Shown: piece after piece, positions 36,531-53,918 of the stretch
Position numbering within the stretch: the stretch's first letter is position 1
How the letters are laid out: each line of letters opens with the position of its first letter
Source of the DNA: an uncultured bacterium
Lineage (GTDB): Bacteria; Eisenbacteria; RBG-16-71-46; JAFGJU01
Assembly: GCA_964570935.1 (NCBI GenBank)
Contig: CAZMZP010000073.1
Span: 28,820 to 92,819 of the forward strand
Direction of reading: 5' to 3'
DNA: 64,000 nt
Notes under the pieces: model-generated
What the model saw: the letters and a program-made list of their open reading frames with translations, nothing else
Databases searched by the model: none
What the model was told of the DNA's origin: nothing
Made by a program: the position numbers and the translations under genes

Positions 36531-36543
36531 GCAGGATAGGACC

Positions 36544-38031
36544 ATGACTGAAGAAAGCTCACCGGAAAAGGGAATCCGACGGCTTCGTGCGGAATCCGAG
36601 CCAGTGTTGTTCGAACTGCACGAGGAAGGCCACGGCTCATTCTCGCTGCCGAGGCCGGACGTGCCCGCGGTGGAGATGGAGAAGGTCCTGCCCCGGCACC
36701 TCATCCGCAAACAGGGCCCCGGCCTGCCTGAGCTGAGCGAGCCCGAGGCCATCAGGCATTTCACGCGGCTTTCATCGCTCAACTACCACGTGGACATGGG
36801 CATGTATCCGCTGGGCTCCTGTACGATGAAGTACAACCCCAAGGTGAACGAAGACGCGGCCGCGCTTCCCGGCTTCAGAGACGCGCACCCGCTCGCGCCC
36901 GAGGAGTCCTCCCAGGGCGCGCTCGAGCTGATGTATCTTCTGGGGCAAGCGCTCACCGCAATCACCGGCATGAGCGAGTTCTGCCTCCATCCTGCCGCGG
37001 GCGCGCACGGTGAGCTCACGGGAATGCTTCTGGCAGCGGCCTACCATCGCTCCAGGGGAAACAAGAAGACGTCGGTCATCATACCCGACTCGGCGCACGG
37101 CACTAACCCGGCAAGCGTGCGGCTGGCGGGGTTCGAGGCGCTGGAAGTCAAGTCGGGCGAGAACGGGTGCCTGAACGCCCGGACGCTCAAGGACGCGGTG
37201 AACGACGGGGTCGCCGCGCTGATGCTCACGAACCCCAACACACTCGGCCTCTTCGAAGAAGAAGTGCTGGAGCTGGCGGAGGTCATCCATTCGGTGGACG
37301 GGCTTCTGTATTTGGACGGCGCCAACATGAACGCGCTGTTGGGAGTCGCGAAGCCGGCACACATGGGTTTCGACATAGTCCACTTGAACCTGCACAAGAC
37401 ATTTTCCACTCCGCACGGGGGTGGTGGGCCGGGCTCCGGGCCGGTCGGCGTGGCGGAGAAGCTCAGGCCCTTTCTGCCGATCCCGCGCGTGGTCAAGACC
37501 GACAGGGGCTTCGTCCTCCATCACGACGAACCCGCGAGCATAGGCAGGGTGCACAGCTTCTACGGTAACTTCGGCGTGATGGTGAAGGCATACGCTTACA
37601 TACTGTCCCTGGGTGGCGAGGGTCTCGAGGCGGTGGCGCGGGAATCAATACTGAACGCGAACTACTTGAAGTCGCTCCTCGCGCCTTACTTCGACATACC
37701 GTTCGACAGGCCCTGCATGCACGAGTTCGTGTTGTCGGGGAAGAAGCTCAAGGCCGGGGGCGTGAGGACACTGGACTTCGCGAAGCGGCTTCTGGATTAC
37801 GGATTCCACGCTCCGACCGTGTATTTTCCGCTTATAGTCGAAGAGGCGCTGATGATAGAACCGACCGAGACCGAGACGAAGCGCGAGCTGGACAGGTTCG
37901 CGGAGGCCATGAAGGCGATCGTGAACGAGGCCGCTGCAAGCCCCGAGCTTCTAAAACAGGCGCCGGTGGCGACGCCCGTGGGACGGCTGGATGAAGGCAA
38001 GGCGGCGCGCGAGCTGAGGCTTAAATGGTAG
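36544..38031 (+). CDS. gcvPB: Glycine dehydrogenase (decarboxylating) subunit 2
   Basis: YPLGSCTMKYNPK, PDSAHGTNPAS, PLP-Lys HLNLHKTFSTPHGGGGPG, MIEPTETE; start ATG 36544. Confidence 0.96.
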   Translation: MTEESSPEKGIRRLRAESEPVLFELHEEGHGSFSLPRPDVPAVEMEKVLPRHLIRKQGPGLPELSEPEAIRHFTRLSSLNYHVDMGMYPLGSCTMKYNPKVNEDAAALPGFRDAHPLAPEESSQGALELMYLLGQALTAITGMSEFCLHPAAGAHGELTGMLLAAAYHRSRGNKKTSVIIPDSAHGTNPASVRLAGFEALEVKSGENGCLNARTLKDAVNDGVAALMLTNPNTLGLFEEEVLELAEVIHSVDGLLYLDGANMNALLGVAKPAHMGFDIVHLNLHKTFSTPHGGGGPGSGPVGVAEKLRPFLPIPRVVKTDRGFVLHHDEPASIGRVHSFYGNFGVMVKAYAYILSLGGEGLEAVARESILNANYLKSLLAPYFDIPFDRPCMHEFVLSGKKLKAGGVRTLDFAKRLLDYGFHAPTVYFPLIVEEALMIEPTETETKRELDRFAEAMKAIVNEAAASPELLKQAPVATPVGRLDEGKAARELRLKW

Positions 38032-38549
38032 AGTCGCGGCCCGAACGGGATGGGCAGAAGGCGGCCGGTGGCGATGCATGCGGCCGGACCGGGGCGGCTC
38101 CCGGCAAATTGACCTGGAGCGTGAGACCGTGTACAATGAACTGGCTGAAGTTCGGCCTGGTGAGCGCCGTCATACTGGGTTTCGGCTTCTTAGTCCAGCT
38201 CGCCTTCGGAGACGTCTTTTTGGCGGTCCTCTCGATCGCCATACTCGTGGGCTCTCTCCACTCGTACTTTTTCGAGACCAGCTACAGTCTGAGTCCTGAA
38301 GGCATAGAGGTCAGGGGCGTCTTCGGCAGGCAGAGGAAGCCGTGGACGGGCTTCAAGAGCTTTTCTGTAGACAGGGCCGGCCTGAGCCTGAGCCCTTTTG
38401 CCAGGCGCTCGTGGCTGGAGCACTACAGGGGCGCGCGTCTGTTTTTCGGCGTGGAGGGAAGCGGTGGCAGGGACGAGGTCGTGGGTTACGTGACTGAGAA
38501 GCTGGGAAAGGAAGCCAGGCGTGGACAAAGGGTTACACCCGTTCCTTAA
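38025..38549 (+). CDS. Hypothetical membrane protein (2 TM + small beta domain)
   Basis: Overlaps gcvPB stop; two hydrophobic helices then YFF.T.Y...LSPF...SWLE.YRG. Confidence 0.65.
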   Translation: MVESRPERDGQKAAGGDACGRTGAAPGKLTWSVRPCTMNWLKFGLVSAVILGFGFLVQLAFGDVFLAVLSIAILVGSLHSYFFETSYSLSPEGIEVRGVFGRQRKPWTGFKSFSVDRAGLSLSPFARRSWLEHYRGARLFFGVEGSGGRDEVVGYVTEKLGKEARRGQRVTPVP

Positions 38550-38916
38550 GGAAACACTTAGGGAGGCGGTGAAGGACGGCATCCTGGACGAAGAGGCCCT
38601 GTTGGACGCAGTGGCCGCGAGGATCGCAAAGATGGGTCTGGGCGTTCCGGCCATCTTCTTCCTGGAGTCCTCGAAACCCCTGAGCTTTCTTGGAAGCCAG
38701 TTTCTGGTCTTCATCGAGCCGTTCGTGAAGACCTTCATAGACATAAAGAACTACGACAAGTTCTGCCTAATGATGGAGGACAGGAACAACGTCGAGAAGC
38801 TGATACTCAAAGTCGAGGAGCTCGAAGAGAAGGTCAGAGAAGAGAAGAGACAGCAGAAGAAAGAAAAGAAAGCTGAGAGAGAAAGGAAGAAGCATGAGCG
38901 TGTCCAATCCGGATAG
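38521..38916 (+). CDS. Hypothetical protein
   Basis: Overlaps both neighbours; PAIFFLESSKPLSFLGSQFLVF.EPF core and Lys/Glu-rich tail. Confidence 0.7.
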   Translation: MDKGLHPFLKETLREAVKDGILDEEALLDAVAARIAKMGLGVPAIFFLESSKPLSFLGSQFLVFIEPFVKTFIDIKNYDKFCLMMEDRNNVEKLILKVEELEEKVREEKRQQKKEKKAERERKKHERVQSG

Positions 38917-40714
38917 TGTCCGCACCATCCTTGCGACCGACTGCGGAAGCACGACGACGAAGGCCATTCTGATCGAAAAGAGGGGCGAGGAATACAGGTT
39001 GATCGTGCGCGGAGAGGCTCCGACGACCGTGGAGGCGCCTTTCGAAGACGTGACCAAGGGCGTGCTGAACGCCGTGAGAGAGGTGGAGGAGCTCGCCGGG
39101 AAGAAGATCCTGGAAGGCGAGAGGATCATCACTCCGTGCAAGAACGGCGAGGGCGTCGACCTCTACATATCCACGTCGAGCGCGGGCGGTGGCCTTCAGA
39201 TGATGGTGTTCGGCGTGGTCAAGACAATGACCGCGGAGAGCGCGCAGAGGGCGGCACTCGGCGCGGGCGCCATCGTCATGGACGTCATCGCTTCGAACGA
39301 CGGCAGGCTGCCGCACCAGAAGATCAAGCGCATTCGTCAGCTGAGACCCGACATGATCCTGCTTTCGGGCGGGATAGACGGGGGCACGACGGCGCACGTG
39401 GCCGAGCTGGCGGAGCTGCTGTCGGCGGCCGACCCCAAGGCGCGTCTGGGCGCGGGCTACATGCTTCCGGTCATATACGCCGGCAACAAGGACGCGAGGC
39501 GAATCGTGTCCGACCGGCTGGCGGACAAGACGGCGCTCGTCATAACCGACAACCTGAGACCCGTGCTGGAACGCGAGAACCTGGGCCCGGCGAGGATCAG
39601 GATACACGACCTCTTCATGGAGCACGTGATGGCGCACGCGCCCGGGTACAAGAAGCTGATGGAGTGGACGGCGGTGCCCATAATGCCAACTCCGGCGGCG
39701 GTCGGGAAGATAATCGAGACAATAGCGAAGGAAGAAGGAATCCAGCCCATAGGAGTGGACATCGGCGGGGCAACGACGGACGTGTTCTCGGTCTTCCAGG
39801 GCGTTTTCAACAGGACCGTGAGCGCCAACCTGGGCATGAGCTACAGCATCTCCAACGTGCTGGCGGAGACGGGGCTTCCTAACATCATGAGGTGGGTGCC
39901 GTTCCACGTGGGAGAGAAGGACCTGCGAAACAGGATCAAGAACAAGATGATCAGGCCCACGACGATTCCGCAGAGTCTTGAAGAGCTGATGATAGAGCAG
40001 GCCATCGCGCGCGAGGCTCTGAGGCTGGCGTTCGAGCAGCACAAGTCGCTGGCGGTGGGTCTCAAGGGCGTTCAGCAGGAAAGGACGATTTCGGACACGT
40101 TCGACCAGACCGCGAGCGGCGAGACCCTGGTCAATTTGAGGGACCTGGACATGCTGGTGGGGAGCGGCGGTGTGCTCTCGCACGCCCCGCGCCGCGTGCA
40201 GGCCGCGCTCATGATGATCGACGCGTTCCTGCCGGAGTGCGTGACTCATCTGGCCGTGGACAGTATTTTCATGATGCCGCAGCTGGGCGTGCTTTCCACA
40301 GTGCACGAGAAGGCCGCCACGGAGGTGTTCAAGAAAGACTGCCTGATTCACCTGGGCACATGCGTGGCCCCCGTCGGGACGGGGAAGCAAGGCAGCGAGT
40401 GCGTCAAGGTCAGGCTCGAGACCGGCGAGGGCCGGAAGGCAGACGCCTCGGTCAAGTTTGGACAGATGGTGGTCCTGCCGCTGGGTGTGGAGGAGACAGC
40501 TCGAGTGGTCGTGGAGCCTGCCAGAGGGTTTGACGCCGGCTCCGGACCCGGCAAGATGCACGAGGCGAAGGCGCAGGGAGGGGTCGTGGGCCTCATCATG
40601 GACTGCCGCGGGCGCCGGCCGTTCGCGCTTCCGTCAGACGACGCCGAAAGAGTGAGAAAGCTGACGGAATGGAACGCGGCGCTGAACGTGTACCCCGAGA
40701 ACCAACTCAAGTAA
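38894..40714 (+). CDS. GlmL/MutL (glutamate mutase L)-like ASKHA actin-fold ATPase
   Basis: Phosphate-1 ATDCGSTTTKA, SSAGGGL, PDMILLSGGIDGG, IMPTP.AV, phosphate-2 VDIGGATTDVFS, RTVSANLGMSYS, adenosine motif VGSGGVL. Confidence 0.85.
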   Translation: MSVSNPDSVRTILATDCGSTTTKAILIEKRGEEYRLIVRGEAPTTVEAPFEDVTKGVLNAVREVEELAGKKILEGERIITPCKNGEGVDLYISTSSAGGGLQMMVFGVVKTMTAESAQRAALGAGAIVMDVIASNDGRLPHQKIKRIRQLRPDMILLSGGIDGGTTAHVAELAELLSAADPKARLGAGYMLPVIYAGNKDARRIVSDRLADKTALVITDNLRPVLERENLGPARIRIHDLFMEHVMAHAPGYKKLMEWTAVPIMPTPAAVGKIIETIAKEEGIQPIGVDIGGATTDVFSVFQGVFNRTVSANLGMSYSISNVLAETGLPNIMRWVPFHVGEKDLRNRIKNKMIRPTTIPQSLEELMIEQAIAREALRLAFEQHKSLAVGLKGVQQERTISDTFDQTASGETLVNLRDLDMLVGSGGVLSHAPRRVQAALMMIDAFLPECVTHLAVDSIFMMPQLGVLSTVHEKAATEVFKKDCLIHLGTCVAPVGTGKQGSECVKVRLETGEGRKADASVKFGQMVVLPLGVEETARVVVEPARGFDAGSGPGKMHEAKAQGGVVGLIMDCRGRRPFALPSDDAERVRKLTEWNAALNVYPENQLK

Positions 40715-40777: not shown

Positions 40778-41905
40778 TTGGCTCACGCGTACACGCCAGG
40801 AGTCACAGTAACTGCTGAGACAAGATTGATAAGGGAGAGGCGGCTCCCCCTGGCCGGGACAGTCCAGGCCAAGAAGGGAGACAGAGTCAAGGCCGAGGAC
40901 GTGGTGGCCCGGACGGAGCTGCCGGGAAACGTCCAGACGATAAACATCGCCAACATCCTGAGTCTGCTGCCCGAGGACGTGGAGAGCGCCCTCCTCAAGC
41001 CGGTGGGCTCGCCGCTCCAGCACGGCGAAGTGTTCGCCATGAGCCGGAGCTTCTTCGGACTGTTCAAGTCCAAGTGCAAGAGCCCGGTCAACGGAACGCT
41101 GGAAAGCGTGTCGAACATAACGGGCCAGGCCATAATGCGCGAGCCGCCCATTCCGGTGGAAGTCCACGCCTACGTGGACGGCGTGGTGGTGGAGGAGATG
41201 CCGCGGGAAGGCGTGAAGGTGGAGACCGAGTGCTCGTTCATCCAGGGAATCTTCGGAATCGGCGGCGAGACGTGGGGGGAGCTGAAGCTCCTGGTGAAAC
41301 GTTCCGACGAACCCCTGGATGAGAAGTCCCTGGACGCTTCGTGCAAGGACAAGCTGCTCATAGGCGGCTCCAGGGTGGACGTGAGCTTCCTCAACAGGGC
41401 AGCCTCGCTCGGGGTCAAGGGTGTGATCGTCGGCGGAATCGATGCCTCCGACCTTCGCGAGTTCCTCGGGTACGACCTGGGAGTGGCCATCACCGGCTCC
41501 GAGGAAAAGGGCATTTCTCTCATCATCACCGAGGGCTTCGGTGATATGAGAATGGCCGAAAAGACCTTCTCGCTGTTGCGCTCGCTGGAGGGAAGGAAGG
41601 CGTCCATGAGCGGCGTGACGCAGATCAGGGCCGGCGTGATGAGGCCCGAGGTCATAGTCGCCCAGGGCGACCGGAAGACTCAGGGCGTCGAAAAGGTCTT
41701 CTTCTCAACTTCGGGCATGGAAATCGGGAGCTCCATCAGGGTCATCAGAGAGCCCTACTTCGGAAGGCTGGGGAAGGTCGCCGACCTTCCGCCGGAGCTG
41801 AGGCAGCTGGAGACCGAGGCCAAGGTCAGAGTGCTCGAAGTCGAGTTTGAGAACGGTGAGAGGGCGGTGCTCCCGAGAGCCAACGTCGAGATGATCGAAG
41901 GTTGA
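40778..41905 (+). CDS. Hypothetical protein with barrel-sandwich-hybrid-like motifs and C-terminal KOW/SH3-like segment
   Basis: RBS GGAGG, TTG start; G.V.AKKGDRVKAEDVVA, KPVGS.L.HGEVFA...CKSPVNG.LE, AYVDG.V; GS.IRVIREPYFG.LG.V. Confidence 0.75.
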   Translation: MAHAYTPGVTVTAETRLIRERRLPLAGTVQAKKGDRVKAEDVVARTELPGNVQTINIANILSLLPEDVESALLKPVGSPLQHGEVFAMSRSFFGLFKSKCKSPVNGTLESVSNITGQAIMREPPIPVEVHAYVDGVVVEEMPREGVKVETECSFIQGIFGIGGETWGELKLLVKRSDEPLDEKSLDASCKDKLLIGGSRVDVSFLNRAASLGVKGVIVGGIDASDLREFLGYDLGVAITGSEEKGISLIITEGFGDMRMAEKTFSLLRSLEGRKASMSGVTQIRAGVMRPEVIVAQGDRKTQGVEKVFFSTSGMEIGSSIRVIREPYFGRLGKVADLPPELRQLETEAKVRVLEVEFENGERAVLPRANVEMIEG

Positions 41906-44900
41906 GATCAAAGGTTGACGCCGTGCCCCGTCTTCTACGTGCCCTGCTAGCAGTCGTTCTGGTGCAGGCGCTCGCCGGCGCCTGCGCGGCCGAGCCCGGT
42001 CCAGCGCCGACGCCCGGAGGCCGCGACCGTGCGAGCCCGCCTTCCGAAGCTCAGGTCAGATGCCGGGGCGAGTCCTTCGAGATCCTGAGCGACGGCCGGT
42101 GGACCCCGGTCTTCTTCAAAGGGTTCAACATCGGCGCGGCACCGCCCGGGAAATTCCCGGGCGAATTCGCCATCACCAAGGCCCAGTACTCCAAGTGGAT
42201 GGGCGAGCTGGCCGAGCTGGGCGCCAACGCAATCCGAGTCTACACGCTCCACCCCCCACAGTTCTACGAGGCCCTGGCAGAGCACAATTCCAGAAATGGC
42301 TCGCAGACCCTGTGGCTCTTCCAGGGAGCGTGGTGCGAGCTGCCCGACGACCTGGACTTCTACAACGACTCCTTTTCCGGGGAGTTCCGGTCTGAAATCC
42401 GCCGCGTGGTGGACGCAGTACACGGAGCGGCAGCGGTCCCGGAGCGCCGGGGGCATGCCTCGGGCACGTACGCCGCTGACGTGTCGCGCTGGGTGGCGGG
42501 CTACGTGGTGGCGCGTGAGCTGGAGCCGTTCGCCGTCATCCATACGAACGAGGCGCACCCCGGGATTTCCGCGTTCGGTGGCCACTATCTGACAGTCGCC
42601 AAGGGCAGCCCGACCGAGTGCTGGCTCGCCGGTATGTGCGATTTCCTGGTCGGCTACGAGCTCGAGAAGCACGGATGCGCTCACCCGGTGTCGTTCACGA
42701 ACTGGCCCACGCTGGACCCCATCTCGCATCCGACTGAGAGAGAGCGCGGCGAAACCAGGGCGTATCACGATGAGGACGCAGTCTCGCTCGACCCGGCCGT
42801 CGTAAGGCCCACTGAGAACTTCGACGCGGGCTTCTTCGCGACGTTCCACGCCTACCCGTACTACCCTGACTTCATGAACCTGGACCCGGGATACTGCGCG
42901 ACAACAGACGAGCACGGGCCGTGCAATTACGCCGGGTACCTGCGGGACCTGAAGTCCACCCTGAAGGGGATGCCTCTGTTGATTGGGGAGACCGGCGTGC
43001 CGACCAGCCGGGGAATCGCCCATTTCCAGCCGCAGGGCTTGAACCACGGCGGCGCCACCGAGGCCGAGCAGGGCGCGCAGAACTGCCGGATCGTCGAGGA
43101 CTGTTTCTCCAACGGCACGGCCGGCGTGCTCCTCTTCGAGCTCTTCGACGAATGGTTCAAGGACAACTGGCTGGTCGACGACTTCGAGCTTCCGGCCGAC
43201 AGAGACGTGCTGTGGCAGAACGTGCAGGACGCGGAAGAGTTCTTCGGCGTGCTGGCCGAAGAACCGCCCGCCTGGCCGGGCCCGGGCTTCGTAGACTGGA
43301 GCCGTGTGCCGCCCCTTTGTTCTGATACTCACGGTGACCCGCTCGATGCACCGGAAGACGTGCTGTCGTATTGCAGGCGTGACCTCAGCGAACTTCGCGC
43401 GGCGTCGGATTCCAGGTACCTGTATCTGCGGGTGCGCACCTGGGCCGTCGACTGTTCGCCCGAGTACCTTTGTGAACCGCCGTCCCGGCGTCCGTGTCCT
43501 TGCGGAGCGCGACTCCTGATAGGCCTCGACGTGCTCGACAGGGACAGGGGGGACACCAGGTTTCCGGTGGTTTCGGACTTCACGACGCAGGCCGGGATGG
43601 AATTCGTGATATACGTGCAGGACGCCGACTCGGCCGCGCTGTTGATCGACTCGGGATACAACTATTCCAGGTTCAGCAGAGTCCTGGACAGGGGAGAGTT
43701 CAAGCTTTGCCCGTGGCCGTTCAGGCCGTCCGTCAACTCTGACGGGAAGTTCGAGCACCTCATCGTGGAAACGAACCGAGAGCGAGTGGACGCGGCGGGA
43801 CGAGTGTATCCGGCTCTCCATCTGGATGCCGGGAAGCTCAAGTACCTCAAATCAAGTGGCGCGGCCGCGCCGGCCGATGGCGACTGGCGGGTGAGTGAGG
43901 GGGGAAGGTCGGTGGAGCTGAGGATACCGTGGGCTCTGCTCAACGTCACGGACCCGTCGTCGCGCTCCGTGCTGGACGATTCGGCAGGAACGCGCGAACT
44001 GGAGGTCACAAAGACGGACGGGATCGCGATCACAGTGCTGTCGCTCACGGGCGGCAAACGGCCGCGAGTGGCGGACGCGATGCCCAATCCGGTCCGGGAC
44101 GGGGAAGGATACGTCATCCCGAGAGGCGACATCCCGGTCTACACCTGGACGGGCTGGGAGGACGTGAAATACGTAGAGCGCAGGAAGGGCTCCTTCGGCG
44201 CAGTCTCCTCGTGTTTGTCGTCGCTGCCGGGCGCGCCGGGTCCGTCCATGGCCGGGGCCAAGACGCCCGCGTCCGGGGTCAGGGCGCGCATCGCGCTCTG
44301 GCCTGGTAACCGCCCGGCCGCGGCGTCGGTGAGCTTCGACGACGGCACGGCGAGCCAGGTAGAACACGCCCTCCCGATTCTGGAGAGCCTGGGGCTCAAA
44401 GCCACCTTCGGACTGTGCGGCGCGTGGACGGAGCCCGAACGCATGAAGCTGGAGCTGGCTCCGGGCTGCGTACGGGAGCAGCTGTCCGATGCGGACGCGA
44501 GAACTCTCCGCGGCCTTGGCCACGAGATTGCGAGTCACGGCTTCAGGCACATCTTCCTGGATACGCTGCGCGAGACGGCGCTGGCCGATGAGATGCGTCT
44601 GGCAAGGTCGTCCGTTGAGTCGGCGCTCGGACACGAGGCCGGCCGGGCGGGGATGTTTGCTGAGCCGGCCGAGGGCGGCGTGGCGATGTTCCACTACCCG
44701 TTTTCCCGGTGGAACGAGCGAGTGAAGGAGGAGGTCGCCGCGGCAGGATTCCTGGGCGCCAGGAGCATCGGCAGGATAAACTCCGCGTCGCCCGACAGGT
44801 ATCTTCTGGAAAGCGTTCCGGTGGTGTCCGACAGGGTGCCGGACATGAAGGCAGTCAAGGCGCTGCTGAGGGAGACGCGGGAGAAGAACGGATGGCTGAT

Positions 44901-45321
44901 CCTGAACTACCACAACGTGCTTCCCCGGGGTTCGTCGGAAGCCAAGTGCTACGCGCGCCTGGACCCTGAAGAACCGTACTCTGTCACGCCCGGTACCTTC
45001 CTTGCGCACATGAAGTTGCTGGAATCCAGCGGATTCTATGTCGCTCCCGAGGGTGATGTGTTAACGTACATACTCGCAAGAGACAACACAAGGCTGTCTG
45101 TCTGGGAAGACGGCGACGAAGTAGACATAAAGGTCCTTAGCGGAAGTGCCGACGTTGAATACGTAACAAAGTTGACGCTTGTCATCAAGCTGCCCTGGAA
45201 GAAGGTTGGGGTTCTGGTGAGTCCCGGCGGCGCGGGCTACGAGCTGCAAGCCGTGGTCGGCGGCGTCATTACGGTAGAAGCCGCCCCGGGGAGCCGGGTG
45301 AGCGTGCGTCGCATGGAGTGA
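41902..45321 (+). CDS. Exported glycoside-hydrolase-like (TIM-barrel) protein fused to a C-terminal polysaccharide deacetylase (CE4/NodB) domain
   Basis: Signal peptide; KGFNIG...GANAIRVYT, HAYPYYPDF, PLLIGETGVP, FE..DEWFK; C-term SFDDG, HEIASHG.RH, F.YP, LILNYH. Confidence 0.75.
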   Translation: MRSKVDAVPRLLRALLAVVLVQALAGACAAEPGPAPTPGGRDRASPPSEAQVRCRGESFEILSDGRWTPVFFKGFNIGAAPPGKFPGEFAITKAQYSKWMGELAELGANAIRVYTLHPPQFYEALAEHNSRNGSQTLWLFQGAWCELPDDLDFYNDSFSGEFRSEIRRVVDAVHGAAAVPERRGHASGTYAADVSRWVAGYVVARELEPFAVIHTNEAHPGISAFGGHYLTVAKGSPTECWLAGMCDFLVGYELEKHGCAHPVSFTNWPTLDPISHPTERERGETRAYHDEDAVSLDPAVVRPTENFDAGFFATFHAYPYYPDFMNLDPGYCATTDEHGPCNYAGYLRDLKSTLKGMPLLIGETGVPTSRGIAHFQPQGLNHGGATEAEQGAQNCRIVEDCFSNGTAGVLLFELFDEWFKDNWLVDDFELPADRDVLWQNVQDAEEFFGVLAEEPPAWPGPGFVDWSRVPPLCSDTHGDPLDAPEDVLSYCRRDLSELRAASDSRYLYLRVRTWAVDCSPEYLCEPPSRRPCPCGARLLIGLDVLDRDRGDTRFPVVSDFTTQAGMEFVIYVQDADSAALLIDSGYNYSRFSRVLDRGEFKLCPWPFRPSVNSDGKFEHLIVETNRERVDAAGRVYPALHLDAGKLKYLKSSGAAAPADGDWRVSEGGRSVELRIPWALLNVTDPSSRSVLDDSAGTRELEVTKTDGIAITVLSLTGGKRPRVADAMPNPVRDGEGYVIPRGDIPVYTWTGWEDVKYVERRKGSFGAVSSCLSSLPGAPGPSMAGAKTPASGVRARIALWPGNRPAAASVSFDDGTASQVEHALPILESLGLKATFGLCGAWTEPERMKLELAPGCVREQLSDADARTLRGLGHEIASHGFRHIFLDTLRETALADEMRLARSSVESALGHEAGRAGMFAEPAEGGVAMFHYPFSRWNERVKEEVAAAGFLGARSIGRINSASPDRYLLESVPVVSDRVPDMKAVKALLRETREKNGWLILNYHNVLPRGSSEAKCYARLDPEEPYSVTPGTFLAHMKLLESSGFYVAPEGDVLTYILARDNTRLSVWEDGDEVDIKVLSGSADVEYVTKLTLVIKLPWKKVGVLVSPGGAGYELQAVVGGVITVEAAPGSRVSVRRME

Positions 45322-46955
45322 AGATGAGACTCTCGAGGCAGTTGTTCGTGACTCTCGCGTTGCTCGCGATACCGCTGGGGTGTGCATGCGCGTTGTGCCA
45401 GAGCGCTCCGGCTTTCGGGCAGACCGTCCTGGGCGAGTCGAACGAGCCCCAGGCGCAGGAGCCGGAAGACCAGAGATTGAACGAGGCGCGCGCCCTGATA
45501 TACGACGGCCGATACGCCGAGGGCATGGCCATCCTTGATGGACTGCTGTCAGAGCGGCCGGACTCGAGAGAGGCGCTGTTCCTGCTGGGCACCGCGTACG
45601 AATGGCAGGACCAGCTGGACGAGGCCCAGAAGATATACAGAACGATAGTCTCAGTGAACGAGAACGACCTGGAAGCGTGGGAACAGGTAGCGAAGCTGGA
45701 CGCCTGGCAGGGCAGGCACGAGGAGGCCATCTCGCTATACGGGAAGCTCATTTCCAGGTTTGGCGACAGGCCTTCTCTGCTGGTGGGACTGGCCAGGTCC
45801 TTGAGCTGGGCGGACAGACTCGACGAGGCGCTTCTTTACTACGACAGGGTGCTGCTCCAGGAGCCGGAAAACCCGGATGCACTGGCGGGAAAGGCGCAGG
45901 TGCTGAGATGGACGGGGGATATGCGGGCCGCCAGGACCGTCATAAGCAAGGCTCAGAGCTCCAGCCCGTCGCACCCCGAGGTGAGGAGGGAGGCGGAGCA
46001 GATCCGGCTCGCCATGAGCCCCAAGGTCACGGTTTCGTACCTCGAGTCCCTGGAGAAGGACTACCTGCGCACAGGAGGCTCCTCCTCCTACAACCTGGGA
46101 AACAGGACCTGGAGGGCGGAAGCGGACTTCTTCCCCCAGCTGCTGGAATCGGTGAGCCTGGACATCTGGTCATCGCGCGACTGGGAGCTTGACAGGGCCC
46201 TTGGAACCGAGAACTTCCGTTTGTCCTCACTCGGGTTCTCCGCGGGCGTGGGCGTCCCGCTGGGCGACCTGGGCACCGCGGGCGGGAGCTTCAGCATCAG
46301 GGAATTCGAGAGATACAGGGAGAACGTGCTCTACCCGCTGTACAGCGAGGAATCGCGCGTTCAGGACTACGAACTGTGGCTTTCGGCTGGACGCGGACGG
46401 TGGAGCTTCGGCGCCAATCTGAGCACCTACCCGTACTTCCACAAGGAAGACAGGGTGACACCGCCAATCAGAAAGCTGGAGATAGGACAGCAGACCGTGG
46501 GAAGAGTCCAGGTCGGGAGGCACCTGACCAGGACGTCGTTCGCCGCGGTGGGTTGCGAGTTTGGTGACTACTCTGAAGAGAACGACCGCGTGAGAGTGTT
46601 CGGCAGCGTCGAGGGTTCGCCATCCGGCGCCGACTGGGTGTACCTGAAGTACGCCGCGTACTTCCAGGATTTCGATTCGACCTCGCGCGACTACTTCGCG
46701 CCGATGAACGAGTTCAACCACAAACTGCAGGCTCAGTTCAGCAAGTCGCGGGGCAGGAACTTCGTGAGCGCGGGCTTGACGCTCGGGCAGTCGCATTCCA
46801 GAAACTTCGGCGACATTTTCTCGGTGGCCCTGTCCGGGTTCGCGTCGCACACGCTCGCGCAGAGATGGAAGGTGTTCGCAGACGGGTTTCAGTCGTACGA
46901 CGACAACGACTATTCCGTCGGCTCCATACGGGTCGGGCTGGAGCTGACGCTCTGA
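45318..46955 (+). CDS. TPR + outer-membrane beta-barrel protein (PgaA/YaiO-like export subunit)
   Basis: Signal peptide; TPRs with the WQD/WQG/WAD/WTG pattern; C-terminal amphipathic beta strands, YFAP motif, ends IRVGLELTL. Confidence 0.7.
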   Translation: MKMRLSRQLFVTLALLAIPLGCACALCQSAPAFGQTVLGESNEPQAQEPEDQRLNEARALIYDGRYAEGMAILDGLLSERPDSREALFLLGTAYEWQDQLDEAQKIYRTIVSVNENDLEAWEQVAKLDAWQGRHEEAISLYGKLISRFGDRPSLLVGLARSLSWADRLDEALLYYDRVLLQEPENPDALAGKAQVLRWTGDMRAARTVISKAQSSSPSHPEVRREAEQIRLAMSPKVTVSYLESLEKDYLRTGGSSSYNLGNRTWRAEADFFPQLLESVSLDIWSSRDWELDRALGTENFRLSSLGFSAGVGVPLGDLGTAGGSFSIREFERYRENVLYPLYSEESRVQDYELWLSAGRGRWSFGANLSTYPYFHKEDRVTPPIRKLEIGQQTVGRVQVGRHLTRTSFAAVGCEFGDYSEENDRVRVFGSVEGSPSGADWVYLKYAAYFQDFDSTSRDYFAPMNEFNHKLQAQFSKSRGRNFVSAGLTLGQSHSRNFGDIFSVALSGFASHTLAQRWKVFADGFQSYDDNDYSVGSIRVGLELTL

Positions 46956-46966
46956 GGTAACTGGTA

Positions 46967-48055
46967 GTGATAATCCCTCTGTACATACTCTACTGGGTCT
47001 TCGTGATCCTCGTGTTCTTCGTGCTGGCGACGGTGCTGGCCGCCGGGCTGAACCGGATGGTGTCGAGTTCGCGCCAGGCCAGAGACCGGGCGCATCGGAC
47101 GAGGGCGCGCGAACTGCTGCTTTCGTTCTCGCGCGAAACGGGCGAGAGAAGGGGAGTGCTGCTGGGACAGATCCAGAGCTTCCTGAGTCCGGAGACGGCC
47201 GAACACGTGGCGCTGGCACTCCACAGGCTGGAGCCTCCGGGCAGACGGGACGTCGTGGCGTTGTTCGAGTCCGGCGGGATGGTGTCGCACTTCATCAGAT
47301 TGCTCAAGACCGGGTCCAAGTGGAACAGGGCGAAGGCGGCCAGGATCCTCGGCGAGCTCGACCTGCCTGTGGCCTCCGCGGCCCTGTACAAGGCGCTGGA
47401 CGACTCCGACCCGGACGTGCGGAACGTGGCCGCCAGGGCTTTGAGCCGCCTCAGGCATCCGATGGCCCAGTCAGTGCTGATCTCGGTCCTGGGCAAGCAT
47501 GAGGAACCAGTCTCTTCGCGCATCGCGGCGATGTTCATCGAGGCCGGCGCGGCCTCCGTTCCTTTGCTGATAAAGAACATGAGGAACGACAACTGGCGCG
47601 CCAGGTTCTGGTCGGCGGAGATACTCGGACAGGTTGGCGACCAGCGCGCGGAAAGGGCGCTGATCTCGGCCCTGGGTGACGCCAGCGCCGACGTCAGGTC
47701 GGCGGCCGCGAAAGCGCTGGGCAAGACGGGAACCGGCGCGTCGGTGGAACACCTCGTGCCGCTGCTTAGGGACGAAGAGTGGTTCGTACGCTGCCACGCC
47801 GCGTGGGCCCTCGGACGGCTCAAGGCGGTGGACGCCATCGGCGAGCTGGCGCACGGTCTGCGCGACAGGTCGTGGTGGATGCGCAAGAACACGCTGGAGG
47901 CGCTCGCGAACCTCGGCGACAGCGCCATCCCGGCTCTGATGCACGCGCTCGAGGGAGACGACAAATTCGCCAGGGAAAGCGCCCTGGAGGCGCTGCAGAA
48001 GCTGGGTGTGGAGGTCCGCGGGTCCGGCGGGGAAGGCAAGGTGGGCGAGAGATGA
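46967..48055 (+). CDS. Membrane-anchored HEAT-repeat protein
   Basis: N-terminal TM; repeated L.D.D.DVR..AA.AL / W.VR..AA.ALG units. Confidence 0.88.
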   Translation: MIIPLYILYWVFVILVFFVLATVLAAGLNRMVSSSRQARDRAHRTRARELLLSFSRETGERRGVLLGQIQSFLSPETAEHVALALHRLEPPGRRDVVALFESGGMVSHFIRLLKTGSKWNRAKAARILGELDLPVASAALYKALDDSDPDVRNVAARALSRLRHPMAQSVLISVLGKHEEPVSSRIAAMFIEAGAASVPLLIKNMRNDNWRARFWSAEILGQVGDQRAERALISALGDASADVRSAAAKALGKTGTGASVEHLVPLLRDEEWFVRCHAAWALGRLKAVDAIGELAHGLRDRSWWMRKNTLEALANLGDSAIPALMHALEGDDKFARESALEALQKLGVEVRGSGGEGKVGER

Positions 48056-49482
48056 CATACCTGCACCTCATGGCTCTGGAACACGCTCTCTTCATCGCGA
48101 GCATCGTGATACTCGTTTACTTCTCGGCGCTGCAGGTGCTGCTCCTGGTCTTGACTCTCCTGTCTTTCCTGGACATGAGGCGCAGACTGAGGCAGAACTA
48201 TTACACCGACTTCGAGTGCATGGCCAGGTCACACTTCACGATGCCGGTGTCGATAGTCATCCCGGCTCACAACGAGGCGGCGGTGATAGTGCCGTGCGTG
48301 GACTCGGTGCTTTCGCTGGATTACCCCGAGTTCGAGGTCATAGTCCTCAACGACGGCTCGACGGACGAGACTCTGGCGCTTCTGAAGAAGGCCTTCCAGC
48401 TCGTGGAGCGCCGCTTCGTGTACAGGAAGAGCATTCCCACCGGCGACATAACCGCCATATACAAGTCCGCTTCAAGACCCAACCTGACGGTGGTTGACAA
48501 GCGGCACTCGGGCAAGAGCGACAGCCTCAACATAGGCATCAACCTCGCCCGGTACCATCTGTTCTGCAGCATCGACGCCGACTCCCTGTTCCAGTCGAAC
48601 GCGCTTCTCAGGATAGTGAGACCCATTCTCGAGAGCCCGGACGAGGTCGTGGCGGTGGGAGGCCAGGTCCGGGTGGCCAACGGATGCGTCGTGGAGGATA
48701 ACCGCGTTGTGGAGCCGCGACTCCCGCGTAGACTCCTGGCCGCCTTCCAGGTGGTCGAGTACCTGAGAGCGTTCGTGGCCAGCAGGCTGGGCCTGAGCCG
48801 CATAAACAACCTGCTCATCCTCTCTGGCGTGTTCGCGCTGTTCAGGAAAGACATGGTCATACAGGCCGGCGGATACAAGTCCAACACCGTGACCGAAGAC
48901 ATGGAGCTCGTGGTCAGGCTTCACAGGTTCGTCAGAGAGATCAGCGAGAAGGGGCAGCGCTACCGCGTCGTGTTCCTGCCGGACCCCATCTGCTGGACTG
49001 AGGTGCCCGTTTCGCTCCGCAATTTGGCGCGCCAGAGGAACCGGTGGCACAGGGGCCTGATTCAGTCCATCTCACAGAACATCAAGATGCTGTTCAACCC
49101 CAGGTACGGAAGCGTAGGTTTCCTGGGAATGCCCTACTACTTCTTCTTCGAGATGCTGGGCCCGATAGTGGAGTTCGTGGGTTACCTGCTCATCCCGCTG
49201 GGTTACTTCCTGGGGATACTGTCGCTCACGTATTTCGTCACGTTCCTGCTCTTGGCCATCGTGGCCGGCACCCTGCTGTCCACGCTGGCAGTCCTGCTCG
49301 AGGAGGCCAGCTTCGGCCTGTACAAAGGTTGGGGCGACTTCGCCCGGATGATGTCGCTGGCGCTCTTCGAGAACTTCGGCTACCGTCAGCTCACCCTCCT
49401 CTTCAGACTGAAGGCGACGGTCGATTTCCTGTTCGGCAGGAAGGACTGGGCCAAGACGAAGAGAGAAAACGACACTCGTTGA
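48052..49482 (+). CDS. Processive GT2 polysaccharide synthase (PgaC/IcaA-like)
   Basis: IPAHNE, NDGSTD, GKSDSLN, SIDADS, Q.VEY, TEDME, RQRNRW; N- and C-terminal TMs; ATG 48052 overlaps HEAT stop (ATGA). Confidence 0.9.
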   Translation: MTYLHLMALEHALFIASIVILVYFSALQVLLLVLTLLSFLDMRRRLRQNYYTDFECMARSHFTMPVSIVIPAHNEAAVIVPCVDSVLSLDYPEFEVIVLNDGSTDETLALLKKAFQLVERRFVYRKSIPTGDITAIYKSASRPNLTVVDKRHSGKSDSLNIGINLARYHLFCSIDADSLFQSNALLRIVRPILESPDEVVAVGGQVRVANGCVVEDNRVVEPRLPRRLLAAFQVVEYLRAFVASRLGLSRINNLLILSGVFALFRKDMVIQAGGYKSNTVTEDMELVVRLHRFVREISEKGQRYRVVFLPDPICWTEVPVSLRNLARQRNRWHRGLIQSISQNIKMLFNPRYGSVGFLGMPYYFFFEMLGPIVEFVGYLLIPLGYFLGILSLTYFVTFLLLAIVAGTLLSTLAVLLEEASFGLYKGWGDFARMMSLALFENFGYRQLTLLFRLKATVDFLFGRKDWAKTKRENDTR

Positions 49483-50465: not shown

Positions 50466-50475
50466 GAACCGTACA

Positions 50476-51096: not shown

Positions 51097-51097
51097 A

Positions 51098-51907
51098 ATG
51101 GAGAAGGTCGACAGACGTTACATATTCCTGGCCATACTGCTGGTGGTGCTGGTGCCGCTTCTTGCGCCCTTGGGCCTGCCCATCAGGATCAGCAGGGAAG
51201 TGCAGTCCGCGTACGACGCCGTGGCCAGGGTGCCGGACGGTTCCAAGGTGTACTTCGCCGCGGACTACGACCCATCCACGATGCCCGAGCTTCATCCGAT
51301 GGCGATGGCCACGCTGGACCATCTGTTTTCGAAGAACTGCAAGGTCATAGGCGCTTGCCTCTGGCCCGGGTGCCCCCCCCTCCTTGAGGATGCCCTGCGC
51401 CGCATCGGAGAGGAGAGGTACGGAAAGAAATACGGCGTGGATTTCGTCAACCTGGGGTATAAGCCCGGGAATGAAGTCGCCATGGTGAGCGTTGGAAGAA
51501 GCATACCTGCCACTTTCCCGGCTGATTTCTACGGCACGCCGGTAGAGAGCCTGGAAGTGATGCAGGGCGTGCGGAGCCTGACGGACCTCGCCATACTCGT
51601 CAACATCTCGGCCGGGTATCCGGGTACGAAGGAATGGGTCCAGCAGGTGCAGTCAAGATACCACGTGGTCCTCGTCGCCGGATGCACGGCGGTCAGCGCT
51701 CCGGAGTACTATCCGTATTTCCAGTCAGGCCAGCTTTCGGGGCTGATGGGAGGACTGGCCGGAGCGGCCGAATACGAGAAACTGGTCGGAAGGCCGGGCA
51801 CGGCGACGAGAGGAATGGACGCGCAGTCGCTCGGCCACATAGCCATAGTAATATTCATAGTGCTTGGGAACATTCTGTATTTCGCGTCAAAGAAGAAGGC
51901 GGCCTAG
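51098..51907 (+). CDS. Hypothetical membrane-anchored alpha/beta protein
   Basis: N- and C-terminal TM; DYDP...PEL.P, YG.DFVNLGY.PG, AGCTAV.AP..YPY..SGQL.G..GGL.GAAEYE, MDAQS..H. Confidence 0.75.
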   Translation: MEKVDRRYIFLAILLVVLVPLLAPLGLPIRISREVQSAYDAVARVPDGSKVYFAADYDPSTMPELHPMAMATLDHLFSKNCKVIGACLWPGCPPLLEDALRRIGEERYGKKYGVDFVNLGYKPGNEVAMVSVGRSIPATFPADFYGTPVESLEVMQGVRSLTDLAILVNISAGYPGTKEWVQQVQSRYHVVLVAGCTAVSAPEYYPYFQSGQLSGLMGGLAGAAEYEKLVGRPGTATRGMDAQSLGHIAIVIFIVLGNILYFASKKKAA

Positions 51908-51919
51908 GGAGGTAGTCGG

Positions 51920-52555
51920 TTGCTTCCAGCACCTTTCGTGAATACGATGGCGGCTCTGCTTACGCTGGCCGTGTTCAGCTTCTTGTACAAGGACAACCCC
52001 TTCTACAAGTTCGCCGAGTACTTGTTCGTCGGCATCGCGGCCGGCTACATCGTGGCGCTCGAGTACCATAACGTGATAATCCCGAACCTCTGGAGACCGC
52101 TTGTGGGGGGGGATCTGAAGCTCCTGGTGCCCTTCGTGCTGGGCGTACTCCTGTTTTCCAGGTTCACTTCGAGCCTCGGATGGCTGAGCAGGTGGGCCAT
52201 AGGACTCATGGTGGGCACTTTCTCGGGGCTTGCCATAATCGGATTCGCGCAGGGAGACCTCGTGGCGCAGATCCAGGCGAACATGCTTCCGCTGAAGACG
52301 GATACCCTGCTGGGCACTTTCAGCAATTGGGTCATCTTCGTGGGGCTTCTGACCAGTCTGGTCTACTTCTTTTTCTCGAAGGAGCACAAGGGAGCGCTGG
52401 GCGCCTCGGCGAAGCTGGGGATATGGTTCCTCATGGTATCCTTCGGCGCCTCGTACGGCTTCACCGTGATGTCGAGGTTCTCTCTCCTGATAGGCAGGCT
52501 GCTCTTCCTGCTGGTGGACTGGCCCGCTTCGTTCGGGTTTTACTGGTTGCACTAG
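51920..52555 (+). CDS. Hypothetical polytopic membrane protein
   Basis: RBS GGAGG, TTG start; about 6 TM; FSFLYKDNPFYKFAE.LFVG, YFFFS, LM.SFGA.YG.TVM.R. Confidence 0.75.
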   Translation: MLPAPFVNTMAALLTLAVFSFLYKDNPFYKFAEYLFVGIAAGYIVALEYHNVIIPNLWRPLVGGDLKLLVPFVLGVLLFSRFTSSLGWLSRWAIGLMVGTFSGLAIIGFAQGDLVAQIQANMLPLKTDTLLGTFSNWVIFVGLLTSLVYFFFSKEHKGALGASAKLGIWFLMVSFGASYGFTVMSRFSLLIGRLLFLLVDWPASFGFYWLH

Positions 52556-52579
52556 CGCCTCCTGGACCTGCATTCTCAC

Positions 52580-53467
52580 ATGAACGACAACGCCGTTTAT
52601 CTTCACAGGCTGTCAGCCGACGGTTTCCTCAACATGGCCGTGGACGAATACCTGCTGGAGCTCTGCCGCGCGGGCGGCGCCCGGGCGGCGTTGCGCTTCT
52701 ACGAGTGGGAGCCGCCTGCCGTGTCACTGGGCCGCTCGCAGTCGTTTGACCTGCTGGACCTGGCCGAGTGCAGGGAGCAGGGCATAGACGTTGTAAGGCG
52801 CATCACTGGAGGAGGCGCCATACTGCACTGGGAGGAGCTGACCTATTGCTTTGCGCTTCGCAGGGACGTGAGCGCGCCCGCTGCGTGGCCCAGACAGACT
52901 GCTAACGCGGTGTCGAGGTCTCTGGTTCTGGGGCTTTCGAAGCTTGGAGTGCGGGCGTCAGCACGCGCGCGGAGGGGTCGTGCCGCGGATGTACATGACC
53001 CCGTCGCGGCCGAGCGTCCGGCCGCTCCGTCGGACCGGAGGCTCACTGACCTGTGCTTCATGTCGGGAGTGGAGAACGAGATTGAGGCCTGCGGGAGGAA
53101 GCTCGCGGGCTGCGCCCACAAGTTCACGCGAGAGGCCTTTTTCTCTCATGGATCCATCATGACCGGGCCGAGTCACGTTCATGTCGCTCGCCTGGTCCAG
53201 CCGGACGCGCGGGCTTCTCAGGACGCCCTGGCTCAGACCATCGCGGAGAAGTCAGTGGCGCTGTCCCAGCTCCTGCCCGGGCCGCCGGCGGCCGGCCAGA
53301 TGGAGGCGGCGTTCAAGAGCGCGTTCGAAGAGGTGTTCGAGCTCTGTTTGGCGCCGGAGAGCCTGTCCCAGTCGGGAACAAGACTCGTGGAAGAGCGCGC
53401 CGCGGAGAAGCGCTCAGTCCTGGCCGCGGCTTTTAGAACCGCCAAGTCGACCGGAGGTGCGCGTTGA
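52580..53467 (+). CDS. Lipoate-protein ligase / octanoyltransferase (LplA/LipM family)
   Basis: NMAVDE.L, LRFY.W.PPAVSLG..Q, VVRR.TGGGAILH, ELTY, GRKLAG, HGSI. Confidence 0.88.
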   Translation: MNDNAVYLHRLSADGFLNMAVDEYLLELCRAGGARAALRFYEWEPPAVSLGRSQSFDLLDLAECREQGIDVVRRITGGGAILHWEELTYCFALRRDVSAPAAWPRQTANAVSRSLVLGLSKLGVRASARARRGRAADVHDPVAAERPAAPSDRRLTDLCFMSGVENEIEACGRKLAGCAHKFTREAFFSHGSIMTGPSHVHVARLVQPDARASQDALAQTIAEKSVALSQLLPGPPAAGQMEAAFKSAFEEVFELCLAPESLSQSGTRLVEERAAEKRSVLAAAFRTAKSTGGAR

Positions 53468-53916: not shown

Positions 53917-53918
53917 AG

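Follow-up and report, generated by a model that had tools for sequence, protein, structure and literature searches.

A Candidate Two-Part System of a GlmL-Family ATPase and DUF6754 Membrane Blocks, Encoded within a Glycine Cleavage Operon of an Uncultured Member of Eisenbacteria

Closest Described Systems and Gene Layout

GlmL/MutL of glutamate mutase is an actin-fold ATPase of the PF13941 family; EutA and DdrA/PduG are reactivase-type actin-fold ATPases. We analyzed eight genes, one of them encoding a PF13941 protein, in a 64,000-nt stretch of DNA (the window; positions 28,820–92,819 of contig CAZMZP010000073.1, here C73) from an uncultured member of Eisenbacteria, the metagenome-assembled genome (MAG) of which was 2.48 Mb in length, 94.4% complete, and had a G+C content of ~63%. 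In our estimate, there is a slightly better than even chance that the eight genes represent, in this genome, a widespread and hitherto undescribed two-part system, in which an ATPase-containing engine would be combined with a four-subunit membrane block.

The initial annotation had placed eight open reading frames (ORFs) on a single strand between gcvPB and an LplA-like gene, and this layout was borne out: the eight ORFs and the flanking gcv and LplA-like genes were all encoded on the + strand, with overlaps or short gaps. The eight genes are:

38025–38549, + strand, s174, a small protein whose ORF shares 7 nt with gcvPB
38521–38916, + strand, s131, a small protein whose ORF shares 29 nt with s174
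38894–40714, + strand, GlmL/MutL-family ATPase (PF13941), 606 aa, sharing 23 nt with s131
40778–41905, + strand, BSH (BSH375), a barrel-sandwich-like (barrel-sandwich hybrid) protein, 375 aa
49566–50465, + strand, DUF6754 subunit (D; PF20539), 299 aa
50476–51096, + strand, m206, a polytopic membrane subunit
51098–51907, + strand, m269, a membrane subunit with N- and C-terminal transmembrane (TM) segments around an alpha/beta domain
51920–52555, + strand, m211, a polytopic membrane subunit

Pfam families were assigned only to the ATPase, the DUF6754 subunit, and the LplA-like gene; s174 had a sub-threshold bPH_6 match, and s131, BSH, m206, m269, and m211 had none. Between positions 33000 and 52999, promoter-like sites were found four times, against 2.7 expected, and terminator-like sites 19 times, against 12.8 expected.

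With GlmL, the window ATPase shares the family and the fold: PF13941 was matched over its entire profile (positions 1–450 of 450; residues 12–483 of the protein; E 5.9e-126; 421 bits against a gathering threshold of 27). It differs from GlmL in falling below the cut-offs of the NCBIfam models—234 bits against 475 for the GlmL equivalog NF040745, 212 against 600 for the GlmL-related ornithine protein NF040744, and 166 against 204 for the subfamily TIGR01319—in carrying a C-terminal extension of ~120 aa beyond the PF13941 model, in its pairing or fusion with BSH, and in its co-inheritance with membrane blocks. Moreover, the glutamate mutase E subunit (PF06368, Met_asp_mut_E) had no match in the genome at its 94.4% completeness, and profile search found no glutamate mutase subunit genes (glmS/glmE) among the genes of the window region. 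Weak Pfam matches to Hydantoinase_A and Hydant_A_N were also present on the protein, and its Gly-rich stretches, which we take to be the nucleotide-binding motifs of the actin fold, were near-invariant across 35 sequences. A search of PDB sequences with the single ATPase sequence returned nothing significant.

Energy-coupling factor (ECF) transporters provide an analogy, since in them, too, one ATPase unit stands against several interchangeable membrane units. In contrast to ECF and other ATP-binding cassette (ABC) transporters, the eight proteins had no match to the ABC ATPase (PF00005), a known permease, EcfT, or an S-component, and the sharing of an ATPase among membrane units would here be deduced from copy numbers. 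RnfC and NqrA resemble BSH insofar as PF13375 (RnfC_N), PF05896 (NQRA), or PF00364 (Biotin_lipoyl) was precomputed on some BSH homologues and fused proteins; however, the window BSH had no Pfam match at E up to 0.01, neither RnfC nor NqrA was among the 50 listed Foldseek matches, and no Fe-S or flavin motifs were seen by eye. The Rnf/Nqr membrane subunits (PF02508) matched one of 23 m206 members at E 0.066 and none of 24 m211 members. NusG/Spt5 has in common with BSH the C-terminal ~55 residues, a KOW/SH3 barrel, whereas the TM-score over the whole BSH protein was 0.11–0.14 (0.11 for 2xhc) and no match to the NGN domain was found in Pfam or by Foldseek. The MreB–RodZ–MreC–MreD assembly, a further analogy, likewise combines an actin-fold ATPase with bitopic and small polytopic membrane proteins, but no sequence or profile similarity to it was found, and the DUF6754 block, unlike it, is multi-copy.

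No already described complex matching the system was named by searches of Pfam, NCBIfam, PDB sequences, PDB folds, or the ESM Atlas. The full-text literature covered, to which most subscription journals and supplements did not belong, contained nothing on DUF6754, PF13941, or TIGR01319 and nothing related-looking for 'glutamate mutase L'; broader queries likewise brought up nothing of relevance. Within the limits of these databases and this literature, the system counts as undescribed; in public annotation, its parts go under the names 'hypothetical protein', 'glutamate mutase L', or 'NusG'.

Conservation across Eisenbacteria

We compared 36 loci around BSH homologues from 18 Eisenbacteria families, by means of hidden Markov models (HMMs) derived from the window proteins together with their orthologues; tblastn matches with less than 50% query cover were dropped (less than 45% in the cross-phylum set below). 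The ATPase gene was directly upstream of BSH in all 36 loci, s131 was present in 33 of them, and s174, upstream of the ATPase, in 34. Gcv genes preceded the set in each of the 32 loci whose upstream sequence extended for 6 kb or more. Downstream, DUF6754 was encoded within 4.5 kb of BSH in 21 of the 30 loci in which 5 kb or more were available; the complete D–m206–m269–m211 set was found in 22 loci of the 36, and an LplA-like gene in 14.

Presence and absence over 201 Eisenbacteria genomes followed the same pattern. DUF6754 was found in 183 of them and BSH in 182: 179 genomes (among these the unpublished genome G015) had both, 4 had DUF6754 alone, 3 had BSH alone, and 15 had neither, the tables being compared by hand. 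The 15 joint absences were spread over 10 genera and 6 families, and ten of the genomes concerned were at least 90% complete. Five of these ten (G025, G026, G032, G036, and G045) were searched further; PF13941 was absent from all five, and gcvPB was present in all five. Inheritance and loss of the parts were thus shared, and repeated joint loss is what a functionally coupled set predicts.

Fusion of the ATPase with BSH within Eisenbacteria was considered and rejected: in 34 loci the two were separate genes, with a stop codon between them or in different frames, and the long open frames around BSH are an artefact of the high G+C content.

Linkage in Other Phyla and ATPase–BSH Fusions

BSH relatives were found in at least 595 species loci (one genome per species). 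The best 80 had 52–64% identity over the full length and were labelled as Eisenbacteria, Zixibacteria, Poribacteria, WOR-3/Stahlbacteria, Ignavibacteria, Fermentibacteria/Aegiribacteria, Latescibacterota, Edwardsbacteria, Hydrothermota, Riflebacteria, Muiribacteriota, and unclassified MAGs. In these 80 cross-phylum loci, the HMMs detected the ATPase 51 times, s131 35 times, s174 27 times, DUF6754 29 times (with the full block 23 times), gcvPB 21 times, and Lpl 11 times; 38 of the loci extended for 7 kb or more on each side, and of these, 24 contained the ATPase and 18 the block.

Two opposite gene orders were encountered. The order gcvTHP–s174–s131–ATPase–BSH–block was typical of Eisenbacteria and Fermentibacteria, and s174–s131–ATPase–BSH–(D-a-b-c), with one to three blocks, was found in Zixibacteria, Ignavibacteria, Fermentibacteria, and Latescibacteria: Zixibacteria carried two or three tandem blocks after BSH, without gcv, and an Ignavibacteria MAG carried ATPase–BSH with two blocks. 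The block came first, as D-a-b-c-(s174)-s131-ATPase-BSH, in three loci: L107 (a Riflebacteria MAG), L126 (unclassified), and L131 (a MAG labelled 'uncultured Synergistia'). BSH was situated among unrelated housekeeping genes in Poribacteria and in many WOR-3 loci. Three Poribacteria and two WOR-3 genomes with dispersed parts nevertheless contained PF20539 in all five cases and PF13941 in four, and the block was still a four-gene unit there. That the linkage is maintained in two gene orders, and that the parts also occur together when unlinked, are two independent indications of coupling. The initial annotation had stated that GlmL-like proteins, DUF6754, and these membrane hypotheticals co-occur in other anaerobic lineages; their co-occurrence was confirmed.

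In the phylum to which the Ignavibacteria-labelled MAG belongs, DUF6754 was encoded in all 151 sampled genomes, with 2–10 matches each; it was absent from all 14 model-organism control genomes.

A search for longer proteins matching BSH returned 91, of which 90 also carried PF13941 as fusions of ~950–1050 aa. About 50 of them (974–1022 aa) covered 99–100% of BSH with 43–51% identity; those named by NCBI were called 'glutamate mutase L' and came from Neomarinimicrobiota and Planctomycetota MAGs. Approximately 40 were more distant (26–38% identity, 52–67% cover), including proteins from Cloacimonadota and Aegiribacteria, and some of these had RnfC_N, NQRA, or Biotin_lipoyl on the BSH part. PF01968 was precomputed on many of the fused homologues, and in the fusion P0004, the ATPase and BSH parts were joined by a short Ser/Gln-rich linker. 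Judged from sequence, the ATPase and BSH form one unit. In the remaining protein, P0006 (707 aa), BSH was followed by a signal-anchor, a stretch resembling FN3, and the N-terminal half of DUF6754; such a topology would be consistent.

Proteins of the Putative Engine

The AlphaFold2 model of BSH (predicted local distance difference test, pLDDT, 86.9) consisted of three parts: a beta-rich, barrel-sandwich-like N-terminal part (~11–171), a Rossmann-like middle (~190–295) with the invariant loops QGIFGxGGE, DLGVAITGxE, TEGFG, and TQIRAG, and a KOW/SH3-like C-terminal barrel (~318–372). Mean column identity was 66% over 36 sequences (alignment A5, made without L053, of the same genus). The top Foldseek matches in the PDB were KOW/SH3 barrels on the C-terminal part, a GcvH domain was ranked 45th (E 0.039), and no whole-protein analogue was found among the 50 listed matches; the BSH profile gave nothing significant against PDB sequences (NusG 2xhc, E 0.072). 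The earlier call of this protein as a barrel-sandwich hybrid, for which the window protein itself had no Pfam match, is supported by the model with its beta-rich N-terminal part, the GcvH match, and the PF13375, PF05896, or PF00364 matches of some homologues.

BSH relatives formed at least 8000 clusters at 90% identity and were named 'hypothetical' or 'NusG'. JGI names some of them 'transcription antitermination factor NusG' (e.g., P0362, P0364, and P0369), apparently because of the C-terminal KOW-like barrel, and this name is a mis-annotation. The name 'glutamate mutase L', which NCBI gives to ATPase–BSH fusions, misleads as well.

The small protein s174 had a hydrophobic hairpin at approximately residues 39–84, followed by a PH-like domain (bPH_6, E 4.4e-4, under the cut-off). 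Its homologues were mostly 140–190 aa long and the first 37 codons of the window ORF were not conserved; because of these shorter homologues, the true start is probably the internal Met38 (~38136) and not 38025, and the 7-nt overlap with gcvPB may therefore not be real. In s131, for which no family was found in Pfam or NCBIfam, a central hydrophobic stretch, a Lys/Glu-rich tail, and a P..F.LE..KPL core were observed, the stretch and the core being conserved. The ATPase, BSH, s131, and s174 were each encoded by a single copy in the genome.

Three short contigs of the metatranscriptome library X10 hardly differed from the ATPase and BSH genes: one of 236 nt (39641–39876 of the window) differed at 1 position, one of 189 nt (40321–40509) at 3, and one of 240 nt (41608–41847) at 3. 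This hints at expression in a very close relative. Among the mapped metagenome and RNA-library contigs, none spanned gene junctions so as to show a transcript; the parts of the window that they left uncovered carry no evidence either way.

The Membrane Block

The DUF6754 subunit matched PF20539 almost completely (profile positions 4–257 of 257, E 2.5e-114, 381 bits against a gathering threshold of 27). It consisted of a signal peptide, a TM segment, a conserved alpha/beta part, a conserved hydrophobic stretch at residues 190–241, and a C-terminal TM segment. Its AlphaFold2 model had a pLDDT of 69, falling below 50 at residues 190–241, and a Rossmann-like cytoplasmic part. The stretch 190–241 was the most conserved of the protein and was rich in Glu, Thr, and Gln amid hydrophobic sequence; it may pack on other subunits or sit in the membrane. 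No fold of the PDB was matched (best E 0.17, with a model partly of low confidence), the profile gave nothing significant against PDB sequences, and the cytoplasmic part had no usable named match in the ESM Atlas.

In a Kyte–Doolittle scan, which is a crude measure of hydropathy and not a topology predictor, m206 and m211 had ~5–6 TM segments each, and DUF6754 and m269 each had an N- and a C-terminal TM segment on either side of a soluble part. By the positive-inside rule, the DUF6754 domain would be cytoplasmic and that of m269 periplasmic; some m269 homologues carry zinc ribbons at the N-terminus, in keeping with its location in the cytoplasm. No Pfam family at E up to 10 was common to more than 6 of the 23 m206 alignment members or more than 4 of the 24 m211 members, and all 30 nearest ESM Atlas clusters of m269 were unnamed hypotheticals. 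Homology of m206 with m211 or of DUF6754 with m269 was not indicated by hhalign (probability below 1%).

Three blocks of identical gene order were encoded in the genome: the one in the window and those at C75:26358–29919 and C77:73573–77355 (L004 and L005). The extra copies shared with the window copy 51% identity in DUF6754, 42–48% in m206, 38–40% in m269, and 43–46% in m211; DUF6754 being the best-kept subunit would fit a shared docking face. Both extra DUF6754 proteins had a periplasmic N-terminal stretch that was FN3-like by eye, Pfam giving DUF6754 only. One extra block adjoined genes of a Ser/Thr kinase, a SpoIIE phosphatase, and DUF1003, and the other adjoined three beta-helix proteins, one with a weak, sub-cut-off Por_Secre_tail match. 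In 22 stand-alone loci (20 of relatives and these two), m206–m269–m211 followed 24 of the 25 DUF6754 genes, and no family recurred in the flanks of more than four loci.

DUF6754 relatives formed 2496 clusters at 50% identity with E up to 1e-3 and 1144 with E up to 1e-30. The conserved part was C-terminal in nearly all 150 listed matches, which were 289–1276 aa long. The N-terminal part of ten long proteins contained FN3 in two cases, a PQQ_2/BamB-like beta-propeller in four, and nothing known in four. The DUF6754 alignment (A4) excluded L022, which is short, L037, which is truncated where the locus ends, L038, for which the coordinates taken contained stop codons, and both paralogues of the same genome. 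Among ten longer m269 homologues, only P0249 (partial) was an m269–m211 fusion; the others had zinc ribbons or an unrelated tail.

Proposed Mechanism and Evidence against It

The first part of the proposed two-part system would be a cytoplasmic engine composed of the actin-fold ATPase and BSH, usually with the membrane-associated s174 and s131, which, where present, probably hold the unit at the membrane. The second part would be a fixed four-subunit inner-membrane block, DUF6754–m206–m269–m211, occurring in 1–10 versions per genome that would differ mainly in the periplasmic N-terminal domain of DUF6754 (none, FN3, or beta-propeller). The single engine would dock on the conserved cytoplasmic face of the blocks, and its use of ATP would power a step of transport or assembly at the envelope, with m269 and the variable FN3 or propeller domains extending the action into the periplasm. 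Several blocks would be served by a single engine, as one energising module serves many ECF transporters. The genomes display shared inheritance, shared loss, repeated linkage in different orders, and the ATPase–BSH fusion; we infer the docking, the direction of action, the cargo, and the sharing of the engine.

The initial annotation had regarded all eight proteins as one machine. Synteny over the phylum and beyond, joint loss, and the ATPase–BSH fusion are in line with this view, but the four membrane genes turned out to be an autonomous multi-copy block and not a single-copy partner of the ATPase.

A more far-reaching version is possible, though short of probable: a new class of primary envelope machine driven by ATP, in which a GlmL-type ATPase with BSH energises interchangeable DUF6754 modules, each with its own periplasmic FN3 or beta-propeller adaptor. 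Such a machine would be a core, near-universal component in Ignavibacteria, Eisenbacteria, Zixibacteria, and allied uncultured phyla and would be unrelated to ABC, P-, F/V-type, or AAA+ machines.

Should the two-part system exist, a six-to-eight-gene system would so far have gone unnoticed, although found in 183 of 201 Eisenbacteria genomes and in all 151 genomes sampled from the phylum of the Ignavibacteria-labelled MAG. The GlmL/MutL family would gain a second role outside B12 mutases, an actin-fold ATPase coupled to membrane complexes would be exemplified, and four unannotated protein families would be given a context. For annotation, we note that the name GlmL misleads here and that the DUF6754 block constitutes a four-gene unit.

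Several observations weigh against the two-part system. Nine of the 30 Eisenbacteria loci with room had no block after BSH: L018 (an insert and the contig end), L037 (block 9 kb off), L045 (where the block is inverted), and six further loci, all from families f9 and f13. The co-occurrence table overstates the support because the genomes are kin. The ATPase, BSH, and block were unlinked in Poribacteria and WOR-3, and s174/s131 were undetected beside the lone ATPase in two Poribacteria genomes and one WOR-3 genome. The sole BSH–DUF6754 fusion, P0006, is one C-terminally truncated record and deserves little weight; the transcript signal consists only of short contigs from one RNA library, possibly DNA carry-over. 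No fold or family match in Pfam, the PDB, or the ESM Atlas hints at the cargo moved. Finally, one ATPase and one BSH stand against three blocks in the genome, and in none of the 22 stand-alone loci was the ATPase, BSH, s131, or s174 found within the fetched 7–8 kb; owing to this mismatch of copy numbers and to such loci, the blocks may work alone. A predicted complex of BSH with residues 72–299 of DUF6754 scored 0.00 in two runs made without controls and speaks neither for nor against binding.

These observations lead to the strongest rival, which we consider unlikely: two unrelated, often neighbouring systems, namely a soluble ATPase–BSH enzyme or chaperone and an independent membrane complex. 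The former would resemble reactivases (GlmL, EutA, and DdrA) or hydantoinase/oxoprolinase-type enzymes, and the latter would be a secondary transporter or an envelope scaffold. It would account for blocks standing alone in all 22 such loci and reaching 3–10 copies against one ATPase, for the dispersal of all parts in Poribacteria and WOR-3, for the Hydantoinase_A/Hydant_A_N and PF01968 matches, and for the frequent lack of a block beside ATPase–BSH in the fetched flanks of the 38 loci that extended for 7 kb or more on each side (block in 18, ATPase in 24). It does not readily account for 179 joint presences and 15 joint absences among 201 genomes, for the triple absence in all five genomes tested, for a linkage that persists across different phyla in two opposite gene orders, or for co-occurrence even of unlinked parts; besides, given the membrane association of s174 and s131, the 'soluble' part probably resides at the membrane in any case.

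Glycine Cleavage and Lipoate Context

The genes flanking the eight are:

33546–34646, + strand, gcvT (Pfam GCV_T, 1.1e-85)
34691–35071, + strand, gcvH (Pfam GCV_H, 1e-42)
35109–36530, + strand, gcvPA, glycine cleavage (gcv matches including Pfam GDC-P, 5.9e-121)
36496–38031, + strand, gcvPB, glycine cleavage (gcv matches including Pfam GcvP2_C, 2e-29)
52580–53467, + strand, LplA/LipB-superfamily lipoyl/octanoyl transferase-like gene (PF21948)

The last gene matched PF21948 (LplA-B_cat; E 3e-28, 99.6 bits against a gathering threshold of 27) and remained below the cut-off of the equivalog TIGR00545 (58 bits against 280). Lipoylation of the H protein links lipoyl transfer with the gcv system. 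In the genome G032, which lacked the ATPase, BSH, and DUF6754, gcvT–gcvH–gcvPA–gcvPB–Lpl were contiguous (L154, G032:C1:314900–331900), that is, in an 'empty site' form. The LplA-like gene thus belongs with gcv, as this contiguity and textbook H-protein lipoylation indicate.

This context underlies a second alternative, already voiced in outline in the initial annotation, that the membrane module is mechanistically tied to glycine cleavage or lipoyl-protein metabolism, either as an ion-coupled or energy-conserving partner of the P or H protein or as a machine for lipoate or glycine uptake or handling. The embedding between gcvPB and the LplA-like gene extends throughout Eisenbacteria and to Fermentibacteria/Aegiribacteria (L115, L117, L130, and L133); gcvPB directly preceded s131–ATPase–BSH in L061 (unclassified), L119 (WOR-3), L123 (labelled Proteobacteria), and L069; an LplA-like gene followed BSH by a few kb in L061 and L064; and the H-protein-like fold of the N-terminal part of BSH points in the same direction. 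However, the system had neither gcv nor Lpl in its vicinity in Zixibacteria, Ignavibacteria, Riflebacteria, Poribacteria, and most WOR-3 loci, gcvPB was retained in all five Eisenbacteria genomes without the system, and in G032 the gcv–Lpl series was uninterrupted. Two Lpd-like genes (Pyr_redox_dim) were encoded elsewhere in the genome, so there is no missing L protein to explain. The eight proteins had no Cys-rich Fe-S-like or flavin-like motifs by eye, which is a weak test; BSH lacked a Lys at the hairpin expected for H-protein lipoylation, the position being judged by eye; and no glycine riboswitch was found upstream or elsewhere in the window by Rfam. The tie does not hold in general, and we regard this alternative as very unlikely. 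From the gene comparisons, the eight genes form a separable cassette inside a gcvTHP–lpl operon, the embedding being an old, inherited context; the gcv and lpl neighbours should not serve to infer the function of the system.

The idea that the system is an alternative L protein was dropped in view of the Lpd-like genes. In four Eisenbacteria loci (L034, L036, L038, and L050), gcvH was directly followed by s174/s131, without gcvPA and gcvPB; the P-protein genes of these four genomes must thus be located elsewhere or have a fused form.

Exopolysaccharide Cassette and Neighbouring Genes

BSH and the block of the window are separated by genes outside the system:

41902–49482, + strand, exopolysaccharide cassette of four genes, comprising:
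41902–45321, + strand, polysaccharide deacetylase-domain protein (Pfam), 1139 aa
45318–46955, + strand, TPR protein with a weak PgaA/BcsC-type match
46967–48055, + strand, HEAT-repeat membrane protein
~48052–49482, + strand, PgaC-like family 2 glycosyltransferase (GT2) synthase, best NCBIfam match PgaC/IcaA

The GT2 scored 133 bits with PgaC (TIGR03937; cut-off 422), and the cassette scored 36 bits with PgaA (TIGR03939; cut-off 367). By these matches, the cassette resembles a synthase-dependent exopolysaccharide system of the poly-N-acetylglucosamine (PNAG) type and is not a PgaABCD equivalog. Of the 36 Eisenbacteria loci, only two, those of the window and of G018 (L018), carried it between BSH and DUF6754; in G081 (L019), of the same family, DUF6754 directly followed BSH. 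The cassette, being common to G018 and absent at this spot in G081, looks like a lineage-specific insertion. The spot was occupied by DUF2270 and GT2 genes in family f3 and by an M4 peptidase with a type-IX sorting tail in a Zixibacteria locus, and 1175-aa Big_1 proteins followed BSH in families f9 and f13. Such recurrent polysaccharide and surface-protein genes near BSH and the block hint at an envelope role; we give this hint little weight because genes of this kind are common in these genomes.

The weakest alternative, a cytoskeleton-like envelope organiser in which the ATPase, through polymerisation or cycling at the membrane, would position blocks that reach the periplasm via FN3/beta-propeller domains, by analogy with MreB–RodZ–MreC–MreD, is highly improbable: the actin fold, the make-up of the block (a bitopic cytoplasmic/periplasmic protein, a bitopic periplasmic one, and two small polytopic ones, elongasome-like in outline only), and the surface-product genes recurring around BSH and the block (the PNAG-like cassette, GT2 with DUF2270, Big_1, and the M4 peptidase tagged with a C-terminal domain, CTD) would suit it, but no profile search run gave homology to MreB, MreC, MreD, or RodZ, GlmL-family proteins are not known to polymerise, the stand-alone block flanks had no recurrent family, and surface-protein genes are so common (22–33 Por_Secre_tail matches per genome) that their adjacency may be chance.

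The genome also contained a SprA-like gene (C41) and 33 Por_Secre_tail matches, including those at C73:3677–3919, 55993–56232, and 60466–60708. The block was considered as an alternative exporter of CTD proteins, in connection with the type IX secretion system, and this idea was dropped: a SprA-like gene was encoded in all five genomes of the same family, and with 22–33 Por_Secre_tail matches per genome, adjacency to CTD proteins is expected by chance.

Directly after the LplA-like gene, a small protein with five TM segments, m150, was encoded (53464–53916), and this position was kept in the Eisenbacteria loci L028, L029, L052, L054, L056, L057, and L059. After m150, an Rce1-like CAAX protease domain was found in the C-terminal part of the long ORF 53181–54755. 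A tRNA gene (63019–63091) was the sole Rfam match in the window at the gathering threshold.

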